A DNA stretch of 37,639 bases from an uncultured Lentisphaeria bacterium (GTDB taxonomy: Bacteria > Verrucomicrobiota > Lentisphaeria > Victivallales > Victivallaceae), in the NCBI GenBank assembly GCA_903840185.1, contig CAIMFA010000686.1, forward strand, positions 1-37,639. Direction: 5' to 3'. The notes beneath the pieces were generated by a model. That model saw nothing but the letters and a program-made list of their open reading frames with translations, had not been told where the DNA came from and did not search any database. Positions 1-36,092 of the stretch are shown here, piece by piece; positions within the stretch are counted from its first letter, which is position 1; each line of letters opens with the position of its first letter. Both the position numbers and the translations under genes were made by a program.

Positions 1-235
1 AAAATTGATTGCGAAGATTTTGAGAATTGGTTCGTATTCTGAGAGGCTGCCGATACCGGGGTATCGAAGGCCTCGAAGAGTGCGAATCCAAACTCGAAAG
101 ATCGCAACCGCTTTGCGGCGAGCGTCTTGCGGCCGTATTTTTCCGTTCCTTCTTCAGGCGATATTCATATCGCCAATCAGTCGGATCGAAAAAATCCAAT
201 CCACAATCCTGCGCGTCTATTCTTAAATTTTCAGC
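1..235 (+). repeat. Window-truncated second, diverged copy of the structured element at 22211..22482
   Basis: Blocks collinear with the 22211..22482 element: gattgcg (7-13 vs 22241-22247); stem-loop gaggctg-cgatacc-(loop)-ggtatcg (41-75 vs 22273-22310); ctcg.a.ag..cg.atcc (72-89 vs 22307-22324); cgcaaccg (103-110 vs 22338-22345); palindrome ggcgatattcatatcgcc (167-184 vs cccgatattcatatcggg 22392-22409). Hairpin stems differ by compensatory changes. The left end is cut by the window edge. Strand is tentative, based on G.U wobbles. Confidence 0.5.
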
Positions 236-423
236 TGTGCAGAGTATGTACAGTTGAAAAAATAATGATACATTATTTTTCCGATTTTTCAAGTATAAAA
301 TTCGCTGGAAGTAACAGTTTTGTAAAAAGATTTTACGCTTTATTTCAAAAATTACATTTTTGAAATAAAATATCGGGATTTTTATCTTCTGTCGTTTTTT
401 ATTTCCGGATTGGCGGCAGTTCT

Positions 424-3400
424 CTATTTTACCGTAACGGCAGTTTTTTCCGGGGATGCCGGATAAACATTTTTTGCTTTGCCGAATCTATGCCTGAGAT
501 ATTCAATACAGACGAAGAATACCGGCGTAACATACAGAGTCAGCAGTTGTGAGAATAACAGCCCGCCGACCAGCGTGATCCCCAGGGGCCTTCTGGCTTC
601 ACCGCCGCCGCCGATGCCGATTGCCAGCGGAATGCCGGCCATAATTGCCGCCGCGGAAGTCATCATAATCGGGCGGAAACGCACCAGACAGGCCTCGATA
701 ATCGCCTCCTTCGCCGATTTGCCGTGCTCGCGCTGCGACACAATCGCAAAGTCAATCATCATAATCCCGTTTTTCTTGACAATCCCCACCAGCATGATGA
801 TCCCGACGAATGCATAGAGCGAAAGCTCGATATTGCAAATCAGCAGGGACAGCAGCGCGCCGAATCCGGCGAACGGCAGCGCCGTAAGAATCGTTATTGG
901 ATGGAGATAATCTTCGTAAAGGATGCCCAGAATGATGTAGATGACGAACACAGTGACAATCAGCAGGAGAATCATCCCTTTCATGGATTTCTGGAAAGCC
1001 TGGGCATTGCCTTGAAAATTTGCCGTGATCGTCGGAGGCATTTTATTTTTGATTTTACTATCAACCTCATCCACCGCCTGGCTCAACGCGATATCGGGTT
1101 TAAGGTTGAAGGAGATCGTAACTGAAGGCAGTTGTCCGGAATGGTTGACCGTAAGCGGCCCGGCGGCGCGATTGACTTTGACCAGATCGCTCAACGGCAC
1201 CAGCTGCCCGGACTGTGATCGAACGTAAAGCAGGGACAGCGCCTCCTGGGTCATCTTGTAATCATCTTTCAATTCCATCAAGACGCTGTATTGATTGTCC
1301 GGCGCGTAAATAGTCGAAATCTTTCTTTCGCCGAACGCGCTGTAAAGCGCATTTTCAATCTGGGTGGCGGAAATATTCATCAGCGAGGCTTTTTCGCGGT
1401 TGAGCTCCAGATTAAGCTGCGGATTGGTGACCCGCAGATCGCTGGTCACGTCCTGGATTGTGGCAAACTTTGACATTTCCTTTTCGGCCTTGCCGGCGAA
1501 ACTGTATAATTCGGCGATGTCCGAGCCCTGCAGGGTGAATTGATACTGCGCTTTAGATATTCTCCCGCCGGTGTTGATTGACGGAAGCATCTGAACATAA
1601 ACGTTCAATCCGGGAATATCCGTAAATTTTTTACGCAGATCCCGCATGATATCCTGAGCAGTCCTTTTTCTTTCGCTGCGCGCTTTCAGCCGCATGAAGA
1701 GCATACCGGAATTTCCGGTCATAGTCATGCCGCCGGCGCCGGCGCGGCACATGAATGCCTCCACATCCGGGTCCGCCATGACAATTTTCGCCGCCGCAAT
1801 CTGGTGTTCTTTCATTGATTCATAAGAAATCCCCTGCGCGGCTTCGGTCTGCGCCAGCAGCGCATTGATATCTTCATCGGGAATAAATCCTTTGGGAATA
1901 ACCGCAAAAAGAACGCCGGTGCCGGCAAGAATGATAAATGAAAAAATCATGACGAGAACCCAGTGGCCGATGGTCCAGCGCAGGGTTTTATCATAAAAAG
2001 CCAGAATTCCGGTTTTTGGTTCGGAACCGTCTACTGATTCTTTGTCCAGTTTTACCATGTGCGGTTTAAGGAACAAGCTGGCCAGCATCGGAATCAAAGT
2101 CAGGGCGACCACCCCGGAAACCAGCACCGCAATCGCAATCGTCACGCCGAATTCCTGGAAAAGCCGGCCGATAATCCCCCCCATGAACAGCACCGGGATA
2201 AACACCGCGGAAAGCGACAGCGTCATCGAAACGATCGTAAACGCGATCTCGCCGGAACCGTCAAGCGCCGCCTGATATACCGACTTGCCCATCTCCAGAT
2301 GGCGGAAAATATTTTCCAGCATGACAATCGCATCGTCAACCACAAAGCCGATGGACAGTGTCAATGCCATCAATGAAAGATTGTCCAGACTGTAGCCCAG
2401 CAGATACATGGCCACGAAGGTGCCAACAATGGACATCGGCAGCGTAAGGCTGGGAATAACCGTGGCGCGGATATTCCGCAGAAACCAGTAAATAACGAGG
2501 ATAACCAGAAATAAAGTCAGCAGCATGGTGAATTTAACATCCGCCACCGAGGATTTGATCGGTTCGGAACGGTCAAACATCACGACCATTTTTACCGACG
2601 CCGGAAGCTGTTTGCCGATAATCACCAGCGCCTCTTTGACTGCCGTCGCGACTTGCACCGTATTGGTCCCCGGCTGGCGCTGAATCCCCAGGATGATTGA
2701 CGAGGACATTTTTCCGCCCTGGCAGAACCACGCCTGGGTTTTGCTGGTTTCCACGCTGTCATATACTTCCGCCACGTCCTGCAACCGTATCGGCGCGCCA
2801 TCCCGGTAACCGACAACAATGCGTTTATAATAGTCGGCGCGGTACAACTGACCGTTGGTCTGGATGGTATAGGAGTTATAGCGCCCGTCAATCGTCCCGG
2901 TCGGCAGGTTGACATTGGCATTCTGGATTGCCGTCTGAATTTCATCGATCCCGATTTTCCATGAGGAAAGCAATTTCGGGTCAAGCTGGATCCTCACCGC
3001 GTATTTTTTTGAGCCGAGCACCTGGACCTGTGCAACGCCGTCAATTGTCGAGAGCCGCTGTGAGATCAGCGTCTGCGCATAATAATCCAGCATGGACAAC
3101 GGCTGAGTCGGACTGGTAAGCGCGACATACAGAATCGGCTGGTCGCCGGGGTTAAGCTTGAGGTAAGTCGGCGGGCTGGGCATATCCGAGGGGAGCTGTT
3201 TGAGCGTCTGCGATATTGCCGACTGCACGTCCTGCGCCGCGGAATCAATATTGCGGTCAAGGCTGAATTGCAGAGTAATCGCGGTCGTTCCCAGGGCGCT
3301 GGAAGAGGTCATGGTGTCCAGGCCGGCGATGGTCGAGAACTGCTTTTCCAGCGGGGTGGCCACTGCCGAGGCCATGGTTTCCGGACTTGCGCCCGGAAGA

Positions 3401-3549
3401 CTCGCCTGAACCAGGATTATCGGAATATCAACGTTCGGCAGGTCGCTTACCGGGAGCTTGGGATAAGACATCAGCCCGAAAATCAGGATACCCAGCGTCA
3501 GCAGCGTCGTCATCACCGGACGCGTAATAAAGATCCTGGAGATATTCAT
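424..3549 (-). CDS. RND efflux transporter permease (AcrB/MdtB/MdtC-type inner-membrane pump)
   Basis: 1041-aa ORF. The N-terminus MNISRIFITRPVMTTLL...LPVSDLPNVDIPII is typical of the family, with two large periplasmic loops and about 12 hydrophobic helices. It lies 8 nt downstream of an adaptor gene. Confidence 0.92.
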   Translation of the reverse strand: MNISRIFITRPVMTTLLTLGILIFGLMSYPKLPVSDLPNVDIPIILVQASLPGASPETMASAVATPLEKQFSTIAGLDTMTSSSALGTTAITLQFSLDRNIDSAAQDVQSAISQTLKQLPSDMPSPPTYLKLNPGDQPILYVALTSPTQPLSMLDYYAQTLISQRLSTIDGVAQVQVLGSKKYAVRIQLDPKLLSSWKIGIDEIQTAIQNANVNLPTGTIDGRYNSYTIQTNGQLYRADYYKRIVVGYRDGAPIRLQDVAEVYDSVETSKTQAWFCQGGKMSSSIILGIQRQPGTNTVQVATAVKEALVIIGKQLPASVKMVVMFDRSEPIKSSVADVKFTMLLTLFLVILVIYWFLRNIRATVIPSLTLPMSIVGTFVAMYLLGYSLDNLSLMALTLSIGFVVDDAIVMLENIFRHLEMGKSVYQAALDGSGEIAFTIVSMTLSLSAVFIPVLFMGGIIGRLFQEFGVTIAIAVLVSGVVALTLIPMLASLFLKPHMVKLDKESVDGSEPKTGILAFYDKTLRWTIGHWVLVMIFSFIILAGTGVLFAVIPKGFIPDEDINALLAQTEAAQGISYESMKEHQIAAAKIVMADPDVEAFMCRAGAGGMTMTGNSGMLFMRLKARSERKRTAQDIMRDLRKKFTDIPGLNVYVQMLPSINTGGRISKAQYQFTLQGSDIAELYSFAGKAEKEMSKFATIQDVTSDLRVTNPQLNLELNREKASLMNISATQIENALYSAFGERKISTIYAPDNQYSVLMELKDDYKMTQEALSLLYVRSQSGQLVPLSDLVKVNRAAGPLTVNHSGQLPSVTISFNLKPDIALSQAVDEVDSKIKNKMPPTITANFQGNAQAFQKSMKGMILLLIVTVFVIYIILGILYEDYLHPITILTALPFAGFGALLSLLICNIELSLYAFVGIIMLVGIVKKNGIMMIDFAIVSQREHGKSAKEAIIEACLVRFRPIMMTSAAAIMAGIPLAIGIGGGGEARRPLGITLVGGLLFSQLLTLYVTPVFFVCIEYLRHRFGKAKNVYPASPEKTAVTVK

Positions 3550-3556
3550 ATCCTGC

Positions 3557-4723
3557 TCACTTTTTCGCCGGGTTGTTCTCGGTTACCGACAGGCTGGACT
3601 GGACTTTCACCTTCGCTTCAGGATAAAGCCGGATGTGGCCGTCGGTCACAACAGTATCGCCGGCATTAATGCCGGATTTGATAATCGCCTCTTTGCCGGC
3701 AAAGCGTTCGATGATTACAGGCCGCATGGCGATCGTATCGCCGGGCTGGATGATAAAAACATAACTTCCATCCTGACTGGTCTGAACCGCTTGAGAAGGC
3801 ACTACAATTCTGTCCTTGTCAATCGCCATAGTCAGAACAACATCGACGTACTGGCCCGGCCAGAGCCGCCCTTCCTTATTTTCAAAAGTCCCCTTAAGCC
3901 GGACGGTTCCGCTGTTGGTATTGATATTGTTGTCAATGAATGTCAGTTCGCCGCGTTCCTGTGCGCCGCCCTCTGCCGGAACTTTGGCGTCCACATACAG
4001 TTTACCGGTTTCCATATATTTCTGAATCATCGGCAGATACGCCTGCGGAACTGAAAAACTGACATAAATCGGTCTGGTCTGGGCAATATTCATAATCACC
4101 GCGTCATTCGCTTTCATGACCGCGCCTTCATGATTGATCAAATCCCCCGCATGTCCGTCTATCGGAGAACGGATGCTGCAATATTCAACATCCAGCATGG
4201 CTTTCTCCACACTTGCCTTGCTGGATTCAATCATCGCCCGCGCGGAATTGGCGATCGCCCGTATCCGCTTGGTTTCATCGGTGGCGCCGGCCCCGTGCTT
4301 GAGCAATCCTTCTTTCATCTCCGCCTGACGGTTTGCATCCTCAAAAATCACTTCATCGCGGGCCAGTGTCGCCTGGAGCTGTTTCAGCGTCGCCTCATAG
4401 GTGCGCGGGTCTATTTGAACCAGCATTTCACCTTTTTTAACATAGTCGCCGGGTTTAATATAAATTTTTTTGATCGGCCCGGTGACCATCACTTTAATCG
4501 GCACTTCGCTGTACGATTCAACATTGCCGAACGTTCTGATTTCCAGCGGCATATCTTTAAGCACCGCTTTTTCCGCCATTACCGGAACTACAGGCATAGG
4601 CTGCTTGACGGCTTCCTGCTTTGAACAGCCGGTTTGACAGAAAAGGAATAAACTCATCGCCGGAACGCCAAGACATAAATAAGCGTTTTTCAGGCAGATT
4701 GATTTAATTTTAAACAGCCGCAT
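3557..4723 (-). CDS. RND efflux periplasmic adaptor (membrane fusion protein, AcrA/HlyD family)
   Basis: 388-aa ORF with a signal or lipoprotein-like N-terminus (..LFCQTGC). It has a lipoyl-like motif VKKGEMLVQIDPRTYEATLKQLQATLARDE, a coiled-coil hairpin and a beta-barrel region. It sits directly upstream of the RND pump. GGAGAG lies about 8 nt before the ATG. Confidence 0.88.
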   Translation of the reverse strand: MRLFKIKSICLKNAYLCLGVPAMSLFLFCQTGCSKQEAVKQPMPVVPVMAEKAVLKDMPLEIRTFGNVESYSEVPIKVMVTGPIKKIYIKPGDYVKKGEMLVQIDPRTYEATLKQLQATLARDEVIFEDANRQAEMKEGLLKHGAGATDETKRIRAIANSARAMIESSKASVEKAMLDVEYCSIRSPIDGHAGDLINHEGAVMKANDAVIMNIAQTRPIYVSFSVPQAYLPMIQKYMETGKLYVDAKVPAEGGAQERGELTFIDNNINTNSGTVRLKGTFENKEGRLWPGQYVDVVLTMAIDKDRIVVPSQAVQTSQDGSYVFIIQPGDTIAMRPVIIERFAGKEAIIKSGINAGDTVVTDGHIRLYPEAKVKVQSSLSVTENNPAKK

Positions 4724-4982
4724 ATAAATCTCTCCGATCTAAACCCGTCCGCACCGACGGGAATTAAAGACAATAAAACAGGATGAGTATTATACCTCGG
4801 AAATCTCACGATTTCAATGACAAATCTGCCGTTATGGCTATTGAATTTCGGGAAAAAAGCATTTCTATTTCTGAGTAATATTCGAAATCAGACGCTATAA
4901 AAAGACTTGCCGGATACAGGATAGTTGTTTCAAATCATCAATAGCCGGACATGAAAAACCGTATCTTTTTATGTGCGTATAC

Positions 4983-5010
4983 TTGTAAATCTGCCAAAAG
5001 ACAGTATCTT
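4983..5010 (+). promoter_or_regulatory. Candidate sigma70-type promoter for tRNA-Val
   Basis: TTGTAA (4983-4988), a 16-nt spacer, then TATCTT (5005-5010), about 28 nt upstream of the mature tRNA 5' end. Pattern match only. Confidence 0.25.
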
Positions 5011-5037
5011 TTGCATCTGGTTTAAACAGTTTCATCC

Positions 5038-5114
5038 GGGCGATTAGCTCAGTTGGCTAGAGCACTTGGTTTACACCCAAGGTGTCGGGGGTTCGAGTCC
5101 CTCATCGCCCACCA
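5038..5114 (+). tRNA. tRNA-Val (anticodon TAC), CCA encoded
   Basis: Hand-folded cloverleaf: acceptor GGGCGAT/ATCGCCC, D arm GCTC-AGTTGGCTA-GAGC, anticodon arm CTTGG-TTTACAC-CCAAG, variable GTGTC, T arm GGGGG-TTCGAGT-CCCTC, discriminator A plus CCA. 77 nt. Confidence 0.93.
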
Positions 5115-5326
5115 TTTCCATCCTCAAGACAGATTCAGCAAATTTATAAAAATTGCTCTTAGTTGCGCAGTTTTAACACATTTTATTTTGCGAGGACTGA
5201 GCTATAGCCAACTAAAAAAATATGTCCATAAAACTATTTGACTGGTAAAGTTTTGCTGAAACTACTTGAGCAACAGAACCCCGTTCACTCTATCCATGCT
5301 TTTTGCCGCTAAGATATAATGAATAA

Positions 5327-5749
5327 TCAATTTCGTTTCGACTCAGTTATCGAGAGACCGCGCTTATTGATAGAAATACGTACAATGTTGTTAATTAAAG
5401 TGTCTTTCTGATAGAATCGCTTGGTTAATCGGATACCTATTGTGTCCCCGCCGACTTTTTCATTACCGACTTCATAGGTTAAAGAAATGGAGGATAAAGG
5501 ATAACCGTTAAGTAGTTTAAGCTGGTCTTCATTAAGTTTATATTCCGTTCCATCAATTTTGATTAAAAACTTATCAAACTCAAATTGCCGGTTTTGGCTT
5601 GCAATAACTTTAACATCCTTATTCTCACCAGGAGTTTTAAGACCAATTGTAACCGACTGCCAACCTAAAAAATCTATCTCGGAAGAAAATACCTGAACAG
5701 TAGAAAGGACGATACATGCAAAAATATAAAACGATACCCATGTTTTCAT
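5327..5749 (-). CDS. Small secreted hypothetical protein
   Basis: The ORF-track entry is 5327..5764. The internal ATG at 5749 (MKTWVSFYIFACIVLSTVQVFS) is preceded by GGAGGT at about 8 nt and gives a clean signal peptide. I recognise no family. Confidence 0.6.
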   Translation of the reverse strand: MKTWVSFYIFACIVLSTVQVFSSEIDFLGWQSVTIGLKTPGENKDVKVIASQNRQFEFDKFLIKIDGTEYKLNEDQLKLLNGYPLSSISLTYEVGNEKVGGDTIGIRLTKRFYQKDTLINNIVRISINKRGLSITESKRN

Positions 5750-7322: not shown

Positions 7323-9533
7323 TTACTCCGCTGGACTATTAAAGCCGCTGTTGATAATGATGTCTTTGCGCCTTGTTTCGGGAAAGACTTTCAAATCTAG
7401 AAGTCTGCCGTTACTGACAACTCCCTCAATTACGGTGTTTCTGGCGGCATGGAGTTTAAAGCTTGCGTTCCAGTGCGCAGGCCAGGCCGGCAGCAGATAT
7501 ATTTTGCCTGAATACATGTCTTCCTGCATCAGCATTGCCTGACATGTTTTGATCAGCACCCCGCCGTGATCCTGGTCCGGCACCCAGTCATAATTCGGGC
7601 CCCAGAACGCGGGGAAACGGGAGTTTTTGTCATAGTTCCCGGCCCGCTCAATGATGGCTTCCTCAACCTGATCCGCAAGGCCGAGATATGCCATGAAAAT
7701 ATCATCCTGACGCCATCCGAACACGCCTTTATCCTGGCGATATTTCAAGGCGTTTATGGCCGGAGTCAGATCCGGACTGCCAACGGCGGTTCTCCTGAAA
7801 GGAAATACCGCATAAAGCTCCGGATTCTCGCAGTTCCGCTTGTCTTCGTATTTCGCGGCCGGGGCAAACGCCTTCCCTTCTTCTGTATCGCGCAGCGGCA
7901 GTTCCGGAAGAATGCCTTTTAAATCCTGCCAGTATTTACGCTGACTCTCTGTCGTTAGTGCAGGTGACAGTCCAAGCAGGCGGTCGATAACGGCATACAA
8001 CCCTGCCAGCTCCGGCATGGGATCAGTGCAGTTCCACCAGGTCTCACAGGCCATGGCCGGATGCATGACCATAACTCCGGCATCGTCAGTCTTATAATGC
8101 TGTTCAAAAAATGTAATCACTGCCATGGCTGCCGGAATCAGTATTTCCTTCAGAAATTTCTCATCCTTTGTATGATCATAGTAGTCCTGCATCATAAACG
8201 TCAGTTCGAGCCCGGCAACCCATTCCCACTTGTGCCATCCGCTAGTCTGCAACGGATCTTCACGCAGCTCAAATGGCGCTTCCCAGCCGTAAGTTTCCGA
8301 GAAGACGGCGCCCCAGTGATACATGCATTCCGGAAAATAAGCGCCGTCATGCCCGAAATATTTCCGGGTGCGGTGGAGGCAGACTGGCAGGATATCTTCA
8401 AAATACATCCTGAACAGTGACTGCATTAAATCATAATCGCCAGAGGCGCACATGCCGATATAAGGCAGCCGGGTGTTCTGCCACCAGTATCCTCCTCCCC
8501 AGCGGCGGTAGTCGGCGTCCAGCGGCGCATCCGCGGGCGGCACTGTGAAGATGGATCCGTTGAATTTTATCGGATATCTGCCCCGTCCGCCGCAGGCATT
8601 GATAAAGCGCTGCAGATTATATGCGCGTGATACCGCCGCCACCGCTTTCGCATCCTGCTCGTCGTCCGCCGAAATATAAATATGGCTTCTGTTCCAGAAG
8701 TCATTCCACCATTTTGTGTGCGCCTGCCATCGCAGGTCATAATCCTGTTTTTCGATTTCACGGATGGTTTTAAGCATTGAATTTAACCACAGGGCAGGAC
8801 TGGAAGGATGTTCTGTCAGGACGTAAATGCAGATGTTCTGTTTTTCCGAGATTGCCGTTTCGAGCGTCCTCTCATCCAGCCGCGTGGCGTTGCCGGCCTT
8901 GATGACGGCGCCAAATGTCCGGTGCAGTATCGGATCGTTAAAACTAGGAGCATCAGCAATACCCTGATATTCCATTGTCATCGCCGGGCTGTCCGATTTT
9001 TCATTGTGATGATACCAGCCGATGCCGTCTTCAAGATTTTCGATCAGGGTATCCGGCTCCGCGAACTGCATCTTATCTTTATCCGGACAGTTCCTGTAGA
9101 TATCGCTTACCTGCGGCGGCAGCAGACAATGTTCTGTACGCCACAGTTCAATTGCCGCCTCGGCTTTCAATGGAATATTGCTGTCAACGGCAACGCCGAT
9201 GACCGGGTTATTGGCATCCACCCATATACGGATGCCGGTTTTGCTTTTGCCGGCGGCGGAACTGATGAAAATTTCTCCGGTCTTCAGTTTCAGGGTCTGC
9301 GAGAATTCCCCGTCCGAGGATACTGGCGAAGGCGTGAATTTTATTCTGACCTTGCCAACTTTCAACAGACGCGAGTCATCCCCCCAGCTGTCAGTTTTGC
9401 CGATGTAAAAGCACAAATCTCCGGACGGTTCCATCCAGACATTCAGTCCGATATCCCCGTTGCCCAGCGGCATCGAGCCGTGGTGATTTTCGCTTGGCGA
9501 ATTCCAGCTGACATCATGGTCTTCAAGTTTCAA
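7323..9533 (-). CDS. Putative cytoplasmic glycoside hydrolase, (alpha/alpha)6-type, GH95-like/DUF5703-like N-terminus
   Basis: 736 aa with no signal peptide. The N-terminal motif SMPLGNGDIGLNVW resembles the GH95/DUF5703 N-domain signature. The start codon is TTG at 9533, with AGGAGG 8 nt upstream. Family assignment is from memory of motifs only. Confidence 0.6.
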   Translation of the reverse strand: MKLEDHDVSWNSPSENHHGSMPLGNGDIGLNVWMEPSGDLCFYIGKTDSWGDDSRLLKVGKVRIKFTPSPVSSDGEFSQTLKLKTGEIFISSAAGKSKTGIRIWVDANNPVIGVAVDSNIPLKAEAAIELWRTEHCLLPPQVSDIYRNCPDKDKMQFAEPDTLIENLEDGIGWYHHNEKSDSPAMTMEYQGIADAPSFNDPILHRTFGAVIKAGNATRLDERTLETAISEKQNICIYVLTEHPSSPALWLNSMLKTIREIEKQDYDLRWQAHTKWWNDFWNRSHIYISADDEQDAKAVAAVSRAYNLQRFINACGGRGRYPIKFNGSIFTVPPADAPLDADYRRWGGGYWWQNTRLPYIGMCASGDYDLMQSLFRMYFEDILPVCLHRTRKYFGHDGAYFPECMYHWGAVFSETYGWEAPFELREDPLQTSGWHKWEWVAGLELTFMMQDYYDHTKDEKFLKEILIPAAMAVITFFEQHYKTDDAGVMVMHPAMACETWWNCTDPMPELAGLYAVIDRLLGLSPALTTESQRKYWQDLKGILPELPLRDTEEGKAFAPAAKYEDKRNCENPELYAVFPFRRTAVGSPDLTPAINALKYRQDKGVFGWRQDDIFMAYLGLADQVEEAIIERAGNYDKNSRFPAFWGPNYDWVPDQDHGGVLIKTCQAMLMQEDMYSGKIYLLPAWPAHWNASFKLHAARNTVIEGVVSNGRLLDLKVFPETRRKDIIINSGFNSPAE

Positions 9534-11950: not shown

Positions 11951-14101
11951 TTATTTTAAAACGAAAGAGCCCTGAAGGCCTCTTTCAGAATCAGGCCCGA
12001 CCCATATTATAAACTCTCCAGGTTCCGAGCCCCAGGACATGTCGCTCCTGGTAAAGGCAAGGTCGACTTCATTCAGTTTAAATTTCACGGTCTTTGTTTC
12101 GCCGCGCCGGAGATAAACCCGGTCAAACCCCTTTAATTCTTTCACCGGCCGGTTTACGCTGGCGATGCAATCCTTGACATATAGCTGCACAACTTCCTCA
12201 CCGTCTGCTTCCCCGGCATTGGTTATATCAGCCGCGATTACGATCCCGGAATTTCCGGTCATAGTGTCCGGCGAAATGGAAAGATTGGAATAATCAAAGC
12301 GGGTGTAGCTCAGGCCGAATCCGAATGGAAATAACGGCCCCTGTCTGGCAATTTCAAGATAATTCTGCATGTTTGACGGGTTGCCGAAGATGTTGCGTTT
12401 GCAATTATAATAAAGCGGAATCTGCCCGGTTGTGCGCGGGAAAGTAACCGGCGTTTTTCCTGAAGGATTAACCTTGCCGAACAGGACGTTTGCTATCGCC
12501 TGTCCGCCCATTGTTCCAGGATGCCACGCATAGACGATTGCCGGAATATGCTCAGCCGCCCAGGACAGATCAAGCTGTCTGCCCGCCATGACCACGAGAA
12601 TAACCGGGATGCCGCAGTTATGCACTCTGCGGATCAGCTCCTCCTGCCCGGCCGGCAGCGTCAGCGAAGTAATATCGCGTCCTTCGCCGCTGCGCAGCGG
12701 ATGTTCGCCGACAACTAGAATTACTGCATCCGCCTTTGAGCTGGTAGTGAGCAGCGTGTCTTCAAAGCCGCCACCGCCGGTAAAGACGGTTGTCCCCGGA
12801 GAAACGACTGACTTGACTCCTTCCGCCACCGTGATGACGTCTTCGCTTCTGCCTGCCGGATTCCAGCAGCCGAGCAGTTCGCTGCGGCTTTCACTGAGCG
12901 GCCCCATAACCGCGATGCGTTTGATGTCCGGGGAAAGCGGCAGCAGATGATTTTCATTGCGCAGCAGCACCAGTGATTTTTCCGCCGCTTCCAGCGCGAC
13001 TTTTTTATGATTTTCACAAAGAATGATTTTGCCTGCGAGGTTGAAATCGGCATATGGACGCTCAAACAATCCAACCCTGAATTTTATTCTGAGCACATTC
13101 CTGACCGCTCTGTCCAGTTCTTCAACCGGCACGGCTCCTTTTCCCACCAGCTGAACGAGGTGATCATTGAAACAGCCGCTGACCATATCCATGTCAATGC
13201 CGGATTTTATCGCCATCTCCGCGGCTTCCGCTTTATCAGCGGCAATTCCCTGCAAGCGGAGATAATCAATACACTGGAAGTCTGTTACCACAAAACCGTC
13301 GAACCCCCATTCCTCCCGGAGCACGTCCTTCAGCAGATATTTGCTTACCGTGCACGGAATGCCGTCAATATCATTGAATGCCGTCATAACAGTGGCAACG
13401 CCGGCTTTAACCGCGGCCCGGAAACTTGGCAGATAAATATCCCGCAAAGCTCTTTCAGAAATATTCGAGTTGGTATGGTCGCGTCCCCCGACGGCGGCCC
13501 CGTAGCCGGCAAAGTGTTTGACGCAGGCGGCTATTTTATCCGGAGCGCCAAGCTTCTCCCCCTGGTACCCGCGGACCGCCGCAAACGCCAGTTCACTGCA
13601 AAGATAAGGGTCTTCGCCGAAGCTTTCCGCGATTCTTCCCCAGCGCGGATCCCGCGAGATATCCACCATCGGCGTAAAAGTCCAGCGGATGCCGGCGCTC
13701 GCGGTTTCAGCCGCCGCAATTGACGCTGTCGCCAGCGCCGCGTCACGCGACCAGCCTGCCGCCAGCCCGAGCGGAATTGGAAAGACTGTGCGCAAGCCGT
13801 GAATGACATCAAGCCCGAACAGGATCGGAGTTCCCAGCCGGGATTCTTCGACCGCAATTCTTTGAATTTCATTCACGGCATTTTCCCGCTCATCGTCCGC
13901 CCTTCCCGTCGGCATACCCCAAAGCAGGATTGAACCGACCCGGCCCTTGCGGACCATAGCCATCATATCTTCATACGAACAACAGCTCTTATGGGTCTGA
14001 TGCAGCTGTCCGGCTTTTTCCTCCGGAGTCATTTTCCCCAGAAGCTCATTTATCTTTTGCTCGATGGCTGAATCACTGGCAGCCGGCATTCTTTTTTTCA
14101 T
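11951..14101 (-). CDS. GH3 beta-glucosidase (BglX-like), cytoplasmic
   Basis: 716 aa with no signal peptide. GH3 motifs present: GLDVIHG, KHFAGYG, and nucleophile region GFVVTDF. The C-terminus is an FnIII-like beta-sandwich (VVQLYVKD..). Confidence 0.9.
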   Translation of the reverse strand: MKKRMPAASDSAIEQKINELLGKMTPEEKAGQLHQTHKSCCSYEDMMAMVRKGRVGSILLWGMPTGRADDERENAVNEIQRIAVEESRLGTPILFGLDVIHGLRTVFPIPLGLAAGWSRDAALATASIAAAETASAGIRWTFTPMVDISRDPRWGRIAESFGEDPYLCSELAFAAVRGYQGEKLGAPDKIAACVKHFAGYGAAVGGRDHTNSNISERALRDIYLPSFRAAVKAGVATVMTAFNDIDGIPCTVSKYLLKDVLREEWGFDGFVVTDFQCIDYLRLQGIAADKAEAAEMAIKSGIDMDMVSGCFNDHLVQLVGKGAVPVEELDRAVRNVLRIKFRVGLFERPYADFNLAGKIILCENHKKVALEAAEKSLVLLRNENHLLPLSPDIKRIAVMGPLSESRSELLGCWNPAGRSEDVITVAEGVKSVVSPGTTVFTGGGGFEDTLLTTSSKADAVILVVGEHPLRSGEGRDITSLTLPAGQEELIRRVHNCGIPVILVVMAGRQLDLSWAAEHIPAIVYAWHPGTMGGQAIANVLFGKVNPSGKTPVTFPRTTGQIPLYYNCKRNIFGNPSNMQNYLEIARQGPLFPFGFGLSYTRFDYSNLSISPDTMTGNSGIVIAADITNAGEADGEEVVQLYVKDCIASVNRPVKELKGFDRVYLRRGETKTVKFKLNEVDLAFTRSDMSWGSEPGEFIIWVGPDSERGLQGSFVLK

Positions 14102-20995: not shown

Positions 20996-21030
20996 TGTCC
21001 GTTCTGTCCGTTTTGTCCGTTCTGTCCGTT
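20995..21030. repeat. Tandem 9-bp repeat array (CTGTCCGTT x4, one T variant)
   Basis: ctgtccgtt / ctgtccgtt / ttgtccgtt / ctgtccgtt, followed by a degenerate tctttccctg. Confidence 0.9.
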
Positions 21031-21066
21031 TCTTTCCCTGTTTTAGATAACTGCGTATTTCGGGCG

Positions 21067-22185: not shown

Positions 22186-22210
22186 ATTTTATACCATAAG
22201 TTGATTGTTA

Positions 22211-22482
22211 ATACCGAATCGCAATCTTAAAGCTAGTAAGGATTGCGGATTCCGTCTTTGCCGGGATGGGCTGGACGAGGCTGGCGCTACCAGGGTAGCG
22301 ACTGAACTCGTACAGCACGTATCCGGCATGGCGGAAACGCAACCGTTTCGCGGCAAGGCCCTTTTGCGTTTATTTGAAAACGGCTCCATCCCCCGATATT
22401 CATATCGGGCTTCCGTCACTGTTCCCAAATAATTCTCAAAATTGCTCTTGTCGTTACTGGCTTTAAGATTGCGAATCGGTAT
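22211..22482 (+). ncRNA. Unclassified highly structured element (candidate ncRNA, or MITE-like inverted-repeat element)
   Basis: A 23-nt terminal inverted repeat (22211-22233 vs 22460-22482, one A.A mismatch) encloses several hand-foldable helices. A diverged paralogue at 1..235 shows compensatory stem changes. Strand is tentative. No signature of RNase P, tmRNA, SRP or a common riboswitch was recognised. Confidence 0.45.
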
Positions 22483-22545
22483 AAAGATAATGCTTAAGAA
22501 TATAATCCGTTTACAGCAAAATCAAAAGCGCCGGCTTCACAAACT

Positions 22546-24708
22546 TTAAATTTCTTGAGGACGGGAGAATACTTTGAGTTTCTTTATCTCTTCACGCCGC
22601 TGTCTGGACTTGTCGTAAATTTCCTGGAAAAGCTGATAAGTGCGGAACTGACTGGCGGAATTGTCTTTGACTTTATTGAATGTCCGGGAATAGGCGCCGG
22701 TCGGCAGCATGTGCCGTGATTTGCGCTTATCCTTAAGCTGAATCTCCAGTGTCTGCCGGATGACTTTCCTGACGCTTTCCTTTTCCACTGGAAACATGAT
22801 CTCAATCCGGTGATCCAGGTTTCTGGGCATCCAGTCGGCGCTGGAGAGATAATATTCCTCTTCGCCGCAATTCCTGAAGTAGAAAACCCGGCTGTGTTCA
22901 AGATAGCGGTCAACAATGCTGATGACATTGATATTACTGGTGCCGATGCCGGGCTTCAGACAGCAGATGCCGCGCACGATCAAGTCAATTTTAACCCCGG
23001 CCATCGCCGCGCGATAGAGGTGCGCAATGATTTCCGGGTCAACCAGCGAATTCATTTTGGCGATGATGCGTCCCGGATTGTTTTTAGTCGAAATTCTGGC
23101 TTCACGGTCAATCAACTCGATGAATTTCTCTCTCAGGGAGAACGGCGCCACCGCGATCCTTTTCCAGGTGTTCAGCGGCGAAGAATAGCCGGTCATGACG
23201 TTGAACAGCGAAGATACTTCCAGGCAGATTTCCGGGTCGCACATGAACATCCCGATATCGGTATACAGCTTTGCGGTCTTGTCGTTGTAGTTGCCGGTTG
23301 CCAGATGGACATAACGTTTAATCCGCATATCCTTGTTGCGCTTGACGATCAGCAGCGCCTTGCAGTGTATCTTGAATCCTGCGATACCGTAGATAACGTG
23401 CGCGCCGGATTCTTCAAGTTTTACCGCCCAGTTAATATTATTGTTTTCGTCAAACCGGGCCTTTAATTCCAGAATAACTGTGACCTGCTTGCCGTTTTCA
23501 GCGGCGCGCTGCAGTGCCTTGATTACCGGGGAGTCACCGCTGACCCGGTAAAGCGTCTGCTTGATCGCCAGCACATCCGGATCTTCCGCCGCTTCATTCA
23601 GCAGTTTGACTACCGGGTCAAACCCCTGGAAAGGCACCGCGTCCATTACACATTCCTCGCGGTCAATCACGCTGAACATCGAACCGCCGCCGGTAAATTC
23701 CGGAACCGGCAACGGCGGCCACGGCTGGTTCATCAGGTCGGGACGGTCAACCTTGCCGATAAACTCAAAAAAAGCGGCGGGATTAAGCGGCATCGGCACA
23801 TTATATTTTAAATCATCATCCAGCTGGAATTGTTCCATCAGCCATTCCGCCAGCTTGCCGCGGCTGCCCTTGGGCAGTTCGAGCCGGATCGGCTCCCGGC
23901 TCTTGCGGTGAAGCAGTTCCTTTTTCATGTACTGCAGAAGGTCGGCAACTCCTTCCTCGTCCAGCGAAAAATCCATATCGCGGGTAATCCGGAAAGGAAT
24001 GATTTCGTGTATTTTGCAGTTGCTGAACAGGAACTGGATATGCTCCATGATCAAATCTTCCAGCAGCACATACTGCTGCTTGTTTTTGGGCGAGAAACTG
24101 AGCCGGATAAAGCGCGGCAGCAGTTGCGGGACTTCGACGAATGCATGCAGCACTTTGCCGGAATCATCACGGCTCAGGCTGACGGCGATTTCAATTGCCC
24201 CGCTGTTGAGAATCGGAAACGGATGGCTGGGGTCAACCGCGAACGGAGTAAGCACCGGAAACACCTGATTGAGGAAGTATTCCTTCAGAAAAACCCGTTG
24301 TTCGCTGGATAACTGTTCAGGATTGACGAGTTGAATTCCTTTCTCCTCCAGCGCCGGCATGATTTCCTGCAGCAAATAACGGTATTTGCGCTCGATCAGC
24401 CCCTTAAGTCTTTTCTTTATCGCTTTGATTTGCGCCGCCGGTTCCAGTCCGGAACAATCGGTCTGCAATGTTTTGGAACTTAACAACTGCCGCAGCCCGG
24501 CAACCCTGATCATGAAAAATTCATCAAGATTGTTGCTGAATATGGCGATGAACTTGAGTCTTTCCAGCAGCGGGTTGCCGACATCGCCGGCCTCGTCCAG
24601 CACCCTGGCATTAAATTCTAGCCAGCTCAATTCGCGGGAAACAAAATATTTTTTATCGAGAAAACCACTCACTGCGCTAATACTCCTGAAATTTGCTATC
24701 CTCTGCAC
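22546..24708 (-). CDS. ppk1: Polyphosphate kinase 1
   Basis: 720-aa ORF starting at a GTG. The likely true start is the GTG at 24672 (MSGFLDKKYFVSRELSWLEFN), with AGGAGT about 10 nt upstream. PPK1 hallmarks: RELSWLEFNARVLDEA, phosphohistidine region GFKIHCKALLIV, and C-terminal LEHSRVFYF. Confidence 0.93.
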   Translation of the reverse strand: MQRIANFRSISAVSGFLDKKYFVSRELSWLEFNARVLDEAGDVGNPLLERLKFIAIFSNNLDEFFMIRVAGLRQLLSSKTLQTDCSGLEPAAQIKAIKKRLKGLIERKYRYLLQEIMPALEEKGIQLVNPEQLSSEQRVFLKEYFLNQVFPVLTPFAVDPSHPFPILNSGAIEIAVSLSRDDSGKVLHAFVEVPQLLPRFIRLSFSPKNKQQYVLLEDLIMEHIQFLFSNCKIHEIIPFRITRDMDFSLDEEGVADLLQYMKKELLHRKSREPIRLELPKGSRGKLAEWLMEQFQLDDDLKYNVPMPLNPAAFFEFIGKVDRPDLMNQPWPPLPVPEFTGGGSMFSVIDREECVMDAVPFQGFDPVVKLLNEAAEDPDVLAIKQTLYRVSGDSPVIKALQRAAENGKQVTVILELKARFDENNNINWAVKLEESGAHVIYGIAGFKIHCKALLIVKRNKDMRIKRYVHLATGNYNDKTAKLYTDIGMFMCDPEICLEVSSLFNVMTGYSSPLNTWKRIAVAPFSLREKFIELIDREARISTKNNPGRIIAKMNSLVDPEIIAHLYRAAMAGVKIDLIVRGICCLKPGIGTSNINVISIVDRYLEHSRVFYFRNCGEEEYYLSSADWMPRNLDHRIEIMFPVEKESVRKVIRQTLEIQLKDKRKSRHMLPTGAYSRTFNKVKDNSASQFRTYQLFQEIYDKSRQRREEIKKLKVFSRPQEI

Positions 24709-24759
24709 GGCTGAAAATTAAACTATAGATGAATTTTCAACCGCGCAAAGTATATATTG

Positions 24760-26526: not shown

Positions 26527-26626
26527 TAAGGCGGACTTCGCCCGCAACCCAAAAGACAGGAAATTCAGGAGTCAGAATTCAGGAGTCAGAATAAAATTTA
26601 TAATTTAAAACCTGAAATATGAAACC
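26527..26626 (+). repeat. 100-nt intergenic repeat family, copy A (contains TCAGGAG/TCAGAAT heptamer tandem at 26565-26592)
   Basis: In an ungapped alignment with the reverse complement of 35993-36092, 81 of 100 positions are identical by my hand count (61 of the first 71). It points toward the Nudix gene, whose ATG is at 26703. Confidence 0.8.
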
Positions 26627-35971: not shown

Positions 35972-36092
35972 TTAGTGTTTTTTAGACTTTTAGGTCTTAG
36001 GTTTCAGGTCTTAGATCTTAGATTTTATCCTGACTCCTGACTTCTGACTCCTGACTTCCATGCCTTTTGAGTTGCTGGCAAAGCCCGCCTTA
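35972..36092 (-). repeat. 100-nt intergenic repeat family, copy B (35993-36092), plus an extended 7-10 bp stutter array
   Basis: The plus strand reads ttagtgtttt/ttagactt/ttaggtc/ttaggtt/tcaggtc/ttagatc/ttagatt/ttatcc/tgactcc/tgacttc/tgactcc/tgacttc. The reverse complement aligns with 26527-26626. The copy starts exactly at the apgM stop codon and points toward the GT-C gene (ATG at 35962). Confidence 0.8.

Follow-up and report, generated by a model that had tools for sequence, protein, structure and literature searches.

We analyzed a stretch of 37,639 nucleotides from an uncultured Lentisphaeria bacterium of the family Victivallaceae (GenBank assembly GCA_903840185.1, contig CAIMFA010000686.1; this whole stretch is called the window, and plus denotes its forward strand). 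The window carries two copies of a non-autonomous DNA transposon of about 270 bp, a MITE (miniature inverted-repeat transposable element) that is multi-copy in the Victivallales (Lentisphaerota). Positions 1-246 hold copy A, and positions 22213-22481 hold copy B, which belongs to a divergent subfamily of the same MITE. We identify the element as a MITE because it has terminal inverted repeats (TIRs), TA or TTA target-site duplications, dispersed copies, empty sites in relatives, and deletion derivatives. An initial annotation of the window had read the two regions as two copies of a structured element, with selection on RNA (or single-stranded DNA) structure; the element is instead an ordinary kind of mobile repeat, and neither a stand-alone RNA gene nor an RNA private to these two sites. 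Taken as a whole, our observations are probably best explained by a MITE that is moved in trans by a DDE transposase and whose fold is constrained in part through co-transcription.

A dispersed inverted-repeat element in Victivallales

Copies A and B are homologous, with 51% identity over 268 aligned positions in a 40-sequence alignment, and both are matched by the family profile in nhmmer (copy A, E=4e-83, model positions 2-247; copy B, E=2e-50). The correspondence of positions 1-235 with 22236-22440, on which the initial annotation was built, is thus borne out. Profile and sequence searches of the window found these two copies and one tiny derivative. The element is 268-272 bp long and has no coding capacity: stops interrupt all six frames of both copies, and frame-breaking indels occur in the family alignment. 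A protein-coding reading is therefore ruled out, as the six-frame translations are interrupted and no frame is conserved, and the gene that follows copy A, gltA, begins 62 nt beyond the element. At the gathering score, a search of the window with Rfam 15 (including its riboswitches and Acido-Lenti-1) returned a tRNA-Val only, and on both copies at E<=10 the best hit had E=7.8 and no family was matched.

Copy A is cut by the window edge, and we completed it through the adjoining RND-pump protein (424-3549, minus strand), which is also present on other assemblies of the same species. In one of these (L001), the full copy is 268 bp long (13304-13571), and the 22 nt past the window edge are the inverted complement of window positions 217-246. 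The leftward extension suggested in the initial annotation thus supplied the missing arm, and because it did, copies A and B can be seen to share a long closing stem whose sequences differ.

We scanned a genome collection with two conserved core motifs as the query; the resulting counts are lower bounds. Among the matches listed, most of the real ones lie in metagenome-assembled genomes (MAGs) of Lentisphaerota/Victivallales, where a genome has several copies and contig ends often coincide with one. With a profile made from the genome matches, at least 70 copies were identified in the fetched loci. More than 100 others, the majority of them in samples of lake hypolimnion, came from scanning metagenomes with another portion of the core. 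The family total is at least 185 copies, 96 of them full length, at no fewer than 155 loci judged distinct by their flanks. Plasmid, phage, and viral collections contained no match to the element, and a search of the literature on MITEs and intergenic repeats in Lentisphaerota (Lentisphaerae/Victivallales) turned up nothing relevant. Some loci hold several full copies within 4-5 kb, in both orientations (L027, at 3712-3982, 5182-5458, and 7593-7857; L080, at 2458-2728 and 3467-3742), and such local clusters could promote rearrangements. We also observed full-length copies on two MAG contigs assigned to other phyla, namely L034 (QLUN01000182.1, Chloroflexota) and L065 (JAKJHH010000006.1, Verrucomicrobia). 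The first of these, a 2.5-kb contig, is probably mis-binned; the alternative is horizontal spread of the element.

Family alignments reveal TIRs of 25-35 nt with sharp boundaries. Subfamily A has the layout TA-TACTCTnnnnGGnTGAAAATTT...AAATTTTCAnCCnnnnAGAGTA-TA, and subfamily B (copy B, L024, and L055) has its core in common with A and TACCGATTCGCAATCTTAAAGC as its TIR. TA flanks the left end in 36 out of 50 copies, the right end in 35 out of 48, and both ends in 22 out of 35, and the preferred site is T-TA-A, that is, with a T ahead of the TA and an A behind it. The target duplication is TA for subfamily A, including its 54-bp derivative, and apparently TTA for subfamily B (copy B and also L055).

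Insertion is directly visible by comparison with three relatives (L104, L105, and L106; ppk 88-92% identical) in which the gene order ppx-ppk-pfkA is kept. Their ppk-pfkA spacer measures 75-97 nt, compared with 360 nt in the window, where copy B ends 27 nt before the pfkA ATG on the minus strand. The empty site ATTATCTT-TA-ACAATC of the relatives appears in the window as the filled site CT-TTA-[TACCG...CGGTA]-TTA-ACAATC. These three relatives also lack the 54-bp derivative, which consists of element ends and sits between ppx and ppk; at this second site, CA-TA-G has become TA-[TACTTTGCGCGGTTGAAAAT...ATTTTCAGCCGTGCAGAGGA]-TA-G. Other internal-deletion forms in the family retain a TIR with hairpin B (~160 bp) or a TIR with the apex of hairpin A (for the hairpins, see below). 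Bacterial MITEs are defined by TIRs around a core, short direct repeats, small size without a transposase gene, multiple mobile copies, RNA stem-loops, and mobilization in trans by a transposase from another locus (PMC3184786), and the element has TIRs, a target duplication, a small non-coding body, a dispersed and polymorphic distribution, and a long stem-loop fold.

These observations bear directly on an interpretation in line with the initial annotation, in which plus-strand transcription would yield a structured non-coding RNA that stands alone or serves central-metabolism genes as a riboswitch-like leader. The strong covariation and very stable fold described below would suit such an RNA, as would the position of both window copies directly upstream of the metabolic genes gltA and pfkA and the plus-strand G.U pairs of hairpin B. 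However, the element occurs at ~155 loci with unrelated neighbors and in both orientations, including between convergent (12) and divergent (14) gene pairs; its ends are marked by TIRs and TA duplications; in close relatives, ppk-pfkA is present with no copy in between; ends-only and half-size derivatives exist; and no Rfam family matched even at the permissive threshold. Moreover, the wobble bias of hairpin A is opposite to that of hairpin B, and a plus-strand RNA would be antisense to the gltA and pfkA leaders, because both genes lie on the minus strand. This interpretation, which we regard as highly implausible, is largely refuted by sites that are empty in relatives, by a distribution that is both dispersed and bidirectional, and by the existence of deletion derivatives. 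We likewise rejected a cis-regulatory leader or riboswitch of gltA or pfkA, as the element has no fixed position or orientation, one third of the informative copies are in the opposite orientation, and relatives lack it at ppk-pfkA.

Fold, covariation, and what may maintain them

Both strands of both copies fold into the same architecture, in which a terminal stem closes two long hairpins, A (apex CGATAT-GA-ATATCG) and B (apex CGATACC-CC-GGTATCG), and a short CCGC/GCGG one. Minimum free energies range from -116 to -135 kcal/mol, and z-scores against shuffles range from -8.5 to -11. Most of the helices described in the initial annotation are present as described: the inner hairpin cgatac/gtatcg (51-56 with 61-66), which is cgctac/gtagcg in copy B; the 12-bp helix of 29-40 with 77-88, including G.U pairs at 30.87, 35.82, and 37.80; and U102.G132, adjoining cgcaa/ttgcg. 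Two descriptions hold in part. The palindrome ggcgata/tatcgcc and its counterpart cccgata/tatcggg have the sequences given, and the copy A palindrome lies at 157-174 rather than at 167-184. The outer helix gaggc/gcctc exists at 43-47 with 70-74, and acgag/ctcgt of copy B is shifted in register relative to it, which is not strict covariation.

We measured covariation on the 40-sequence alignment with a structure of 97 pairs. When only the two window copies are compared, 43 of these pairs are identical and paired, 27 are altered on both sides yet still paired, 5 are altered on one side yet still paired, and 17 pair in one copy only. The initial claim that the differences preserve pairing therefore stands, since they are largely compensatory, and it extends far beyond two copies. 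Across the alignment, 92.9% of cells pair, compared with 36-44% when partners are shifted by 1-3 columns, and 55 out of 97 pairs are altered on both sides. The covariation score is 0.241, compared with 0.05-0.07 for shifted and 0.107 for shuffled partners, and was reached by none of 500 shuffles. Pairing is thus maintained across the subfamilies by many double substitutions. Whole-helix replacement also occurs, as the short hairpin is swapped for CCCGC-GCCT-GCGGG in three copies, and the apex of hairpin A has the compensated variants CAATAT..ATATTG and TGATAT..ATCA among copies ascertained through hairpin B. The initial annotation considered such covariation unusual for junk repeats; for this class it is not, and bcr1 of Bacillus provides a precedent (PMC3184786).

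In addition, we observed that GATTGCG/CGCAATC (and TTGCG/CGCAA) is repeated four to five times per element in both orientations, for example at 101-107, 127-131, and 22221-22227. This recurrence permits several mutually exclusive pairings, including the cgcaa/ttgcg helix mentioned above, and the motif might serve as a recurring binding site for a protein instead of forming a helix.

The wobble pairs had been taken as weakly favoring plus-strand transcription, which our analysis does not support. Hairpin B has persistent plus-strand G.U positions, the same as those noted initially, and hairpin A has persistent minus-strand G.U positions (49:124, 53:121, 54:120, and 63:111). Because the two hairpins carry opposite biases, no strand can be called from wobbles; among pairs predicted in both orientations, we counted 33 G.U and 33 A.C cells. 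Folding energies point to neither strand: RNAalifold gives similar values for the 40-sequence set, -63.0 (minus) and -64.2 (plus), and gives -43.1 (minus) and -54.6 (plus) for a larger, 92-sequence set, and single-copy energies show no consistent difference (copy B, plus -134.8 and minus -123.8 kcal/mol; copy A, minus -118.0 and plus -116.4 kcal/mol). An origin of the two halves as inverted copies of a single arm would explain the opposite wobbles; we rejected it, as similarity beyond the TIR is not significant (z ~1.8, with a similar score for a direct-orientation control).

Genomic context points to the minus strand. After collapsing orthologous duplicates, the strand corresponding to window minus is co-directional with the neighboring gene or genes in 82 instances and opposite in 40 (p=0.0002), and between co-directional genes the ratio is 27:9 (p=0.004). 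Both window copies lie in the favored orientation. Any importance that the element has as RNA should thus attach to the window minus strand and not to the plus strand. Consensus scans of the element found no intrinsic terminators and no strong internal promoters.

We propose that the element is mobilized in trans by a TA-targeting DDE transposase whose gene lies at another place in the genome. Elements of the IS630/Tc1-mariner family target TA, generate a 2-bp TA duplication, and have terminal inverted repeats, and elements of the IS5 group generate a 3-bp duplication. An IS630/Tc1-mariner-like enzyme would thus be a candidate for subfamily A, with its 2-bp TA duplication, whereas the 3-bp TTA of subfamily B fits an IS5-like (IS5-group) enzyme better. 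We further propose that the fold is under constraint and is not just a by-product of palindromic sequence, and that this constraint would act at least partly when the element is co-transcribed with neighboring genes. In the window, the transcribed strand would be minus, with copy A in a putative leader of gltA and copy B in the spacer between ppk and pfkA. A transcribed element would form a very stable multi-hairpin RNA that could affect mRNA processing, stability, or read-through, as has been demonstrated for ERIC and suggested for bcr1. We hold constraint at the RNA level with less confidence than mobilization in trans.

Several observations hint at constraint. Upstream of gltA, the orthologous copies of the window species (L001) and of a relative (L031) share 94% identity, compared with 80% for the upstream spacer, 88.5% for the 62-nt leader, and 89% for the first 900 nt of gltA, and the trend is similar in four further orthologous pairs. 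Between subfamilies A and B, conservation is higher in the core than in the TIRs. Positions 6-14 of the TIR are hypervariable in the family (at least 10 haplotypes), and the left and right TIRs of one copy differ by 2.1 mismatches per 22 nt, compared with 5.1 between copies. The slow divergence, the conserved core, and the matched TIRs are suggestive and go no further, because each has a neutral alternative in ectopic or intra-hairpin conversion.

Five points weigh against our explanation. First, template switching or mismatch correction within a hairpin can produce compensatory changes in inverted repeats even when nothing is selected. Second, ectopic conversion among copies could explain why orthologous copies are the more conserved. 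Third, the wobble asymmetry is contradictory between the hairpins and indicates no single functional strand. Fourth, the orientation bias is about 2:1 and derives from crude open reading frame (ORF) calls. Fifth, searches of ~1.3 Mb of fetched loci and of viral, plasmid, and phage collections yielded no transposase with matching ends; the mobilizing enzyme and its family are inferred for this reason. Within the fetched loci, solo-TIR searches returned deletion derivatives only and no ORF-bearing element with these TIRs, all-versus-all clustering of ORFs gave no multi-copy transposase, and the ORFs adjoining fragmentary copies in L015 and L020, which we considered as transposase candidates, are ordinary genes.

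It is possible, though we consider it doubtful, that the element is a MITE whose pairing has no function. Concerted evolution of inverted repeats at the DNA level (hairpin-templated correction and template switching) would then produce the covariation, and recent spread or ectopic conversion would account for the similarity of copies. The equal numbers of G.U and A.C cells and the opposite biases of the hairpins are what strand-blind processes should leave, the two strands are equal in how well they fold, each copy has homogenized left and right TIRs despite their hypervariability, and derivatives without hairpin A or the whole core persist. On the other hand, an 82:40 orientation bias relative to genes is unexpected for a strand-blind element free of function, and the greater conservation of the core than of the TIRs is the reverse of what a MITE constrained purely by its transposase should show. 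Long-standing G.T and A.C positions also remain frequent although mismatch correction should erase them, and orthologous copies diverge ~3-fold more slowly than the flanking spacer. Concerted evolution is therefore a serious alternative for the covariation that leaves the orientation bias unexplained.

A further scenario, which we find very unlikely, places the function of the hairpins in transposition itself, with ends recognized as folded single-stranded DNA by an IS200/IS605-type system (as in PATEs) or by an undescribed structure-dependent one. Such recognition would be in keeping with a TIR stem that is complementary without being conserved in sequence, with the tolerance of G.T wobbles in the 5' half on each strand, and with the conserved hairpin that each half of the element has to itself. 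IS200/IS605 elements have no TIRs and no target duplication, and PATEs have subterminal hairpins and insert by a fixed tetra- or pentanucleotide. The TIRs and TA/TTA duplications of the element thus exclude membership of this family. Moreover, no TnpA/TnpB-like ORF lies near any copy, ends-only derivatives that lack both hairpins were still inserted with a TA duplication, and outside the TIR no inverted duplication between the halves is detectable. Transposition may nevertheless include a structure-dependent step.

A bolder extension of our explanation would treat the branched core (hairpins A and B with the short hairpin) as a selected RNA module that is carried on two transposon end systems (TA and TTA) and spreads through Victivallales genomes as an orientation-dependent riboregulatory cassette. 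Once inserted in a leader or an intercistronic spacer, as ahead of gltA or between ppk and pfkA, the module would act on mRNA processing, stability, or read-through. We consider this improbable.

Features of the window

The coordinates of the two MITE copies, their parts, and the derivative are given in Table 1. On the minus strand, the RND-pump gene is followed by copy A and then by gltA (citrate synthase), the start codon of which lies 62 nt past the element. The promoter-like site upstream of copy A matches the consensus at 10 out of 12 positions, where 1.4 such sites are expected by chance in the region, and it is a consensus match only; if this site were used, copy A would fall in the 5' leader of gltA.

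Table 1. Element copies and associated features in the window (positions 1 to 37,639)
Feature	Position	Strand	Remarks
Copy A, subfamily-A MITE	1-246	-	nhmmer; window edge removes the last 22 nt of the 3' TIR (minus orientation)
Hairpin B of copy A	9-107	-	Apex cgatacc-gg-ggtatcg at 51-66; wobbles are plus-strand G.U; contains the helix set of the initial annotation
Short hairpin CCGC-AAA-GCGG of copy A	108-118	-	CCCGC-GCCT-GCGGG instead in some copies
Hairpin A of copy A	119-215	-	Apex palindrome CGATAT-GA-ATATCG at 157-174; non-Watson-Crick pairs are minus-strand G.U
5' TIR of copy A	217-246	-	TACTCTGCACAGCTGAAAATTTAAGAATAG on the minus strand; partner outside the window, at L001 13545-13571; arm sequence recurs at 24699-24752
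Degenerate target-site TA of copy A	247-248		CA on the minus strand; TA in the orthologous L031 copy
Promoter-like TTGAAA-16-TATCAT	265-292	-	Just upstream of copy A in gene orientation; L001 13258-13285
Inverted-repeat arm of copy B, one side	22208-22242		35 nt, 89% complementary; TIR proper from 22213
Target-site duplication of copy B, left	22210-22212		TAA on plus, TTA on minus; empty sites CTT-TA-ACAATC in L104 and L106
Copy B, complete subfamily-B MITE	22213-22481	-	269 bp; between ppk and pfkA; missing from the spacer in three close relatives
Inverted-repeat arm of copy B, other side	22451-22485		TIR proper up to 22481
Target-site duplication of copy B, right	22482-22484		TAA on plus
Ends-only subfamily-A derivative, 54 bp	24699-24752	-	Two TIRs around a 10-nt remnant; TA at 24697-24698 and 24753-24754

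The 54-bp derivative affects the annotation of ppk, the product of which is 56% identical to that of Victivallis vadensis; the host is thus a member of the Victivallales that differs from V. vadensis in genus or family. The mechanically called ORF has its GTG start at 24708 (minus strand), within the mini-element. In relatives that lack the insert, ppk starts at a GTG equivalent to window position 24660, with AGGAG ahead of it, and for this reason the true start is probably 24660.

Besides the MITE, the window contains a second, unrelated dispersed repeat of 100 nt at 26527-26626 (plus) and 35993-36092 (minus). The two copies are inverted relative to each other, 81% identical, and contain a tandem TTCAGGAGTCAGAA motif, and each closely precedes a co-directional gene. 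Related pieces were found by blastn in at least 12 other Victivallales loci. Four tandem 9-mers (TGTCCGTTC/T) are present at 20996-21031, upstream of a zone of ORF overlap near the 3' end of pfkA. Finally, the two assemblies of the species differ beside the RND-pump operon: positions 1819-8295 of L001 form an island with a phage-type integrase, an AAA_25 protein, and a Fic-like protein, whereas its window counterpart (~4724-5040) has just a tRNA-Val (5038-5114) nearby. This suggests that the island is a strain-variable integrative element.

Relation to known repeats

In behavior, the closest known systems are bcr1, Correia/RUP, and ERIC. The bcr1 repeat of the Bacillus cereus group, which belongs to group A of the bcr repeats (Okstad 2004 and Klevan 2007, summarized in PMC3184786), is likewise a non-autonomous intergenic mobile repeat with short direct-repeat flanks and a patchy distribution between close relatives, and it has a predicted cruciform-like fold with two independent stem-loops and compensatory base changes (PMC3184786). 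It differs in its length (~155 bp), its 5-bp duplication, its host phylum (Firmicutes), and in that its transcription has been shown experimentally, whereas the Victivallales element is ~270 bp long, has a TA or TTA duplication and TIRs of 25-35 nt, and belongs to Lentisphaerota. We expect no sequence relationship between the two.

The Correia/NEMIS elements in Neisseria and the RUP elements in Streptococcus pneumoniae are also short and non-coding, with TIRs and long RNA hairpins, and often lie near gene starts or ends, where they are co-transcribed (PMC3184786). Both differ in being 100-160 bp long and forming simple rod-like hairpins, and Correia ends carry an IHF site and promoters; the Victivallales element is larger and has a branched core, two subfamilies with different TIRs, and no partner insertion sequence in the fetched loci. 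Like the Victivallales element, Correia/NEMIS and RUP insert at TA and duplicate it, and RUP is linked to IS630-Spn1. The ERIC sequences of Enterobacteriaceae share with the element an imperfectly palindromic structure, intergenic sites (transcribed, in the case of ERIC), TIRs, and TA at both termini, and their effects on mRNA stability depend on the mode of transcription (PMC3184786). They differ in being 127 bp long and confined to enterobacteria, and their RNase E-dependent effect has been shown experimentally, whereas an effect of the Victivallales element as RNA is proposed by analogy.

For annotation, the element is a repeat that breaks assemblies, with many copies (including the one at the window start) at contig ends, and its strong covariation could lead to it being mistaken for a riboswitch-like RNA. 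More generally, it illustrates that covariation by itself cannot tell a functional RNA from palindromic DNA that is mobile. Freshwater and gut Victivallales carry the family in abundance, and in these bacteria it has entered central-metabolism operons (ppk-pfkA) and the putative leader of gltA, and one core is common to two end systems. Because an orientation bias, a divergence slower than that of the flanks, and TIR complementarity without sequence conservation occur together, the family is a good system for asking whether the structure of a repeat is selected at the RNA level, selected at the DNA level, or simply homogenized.

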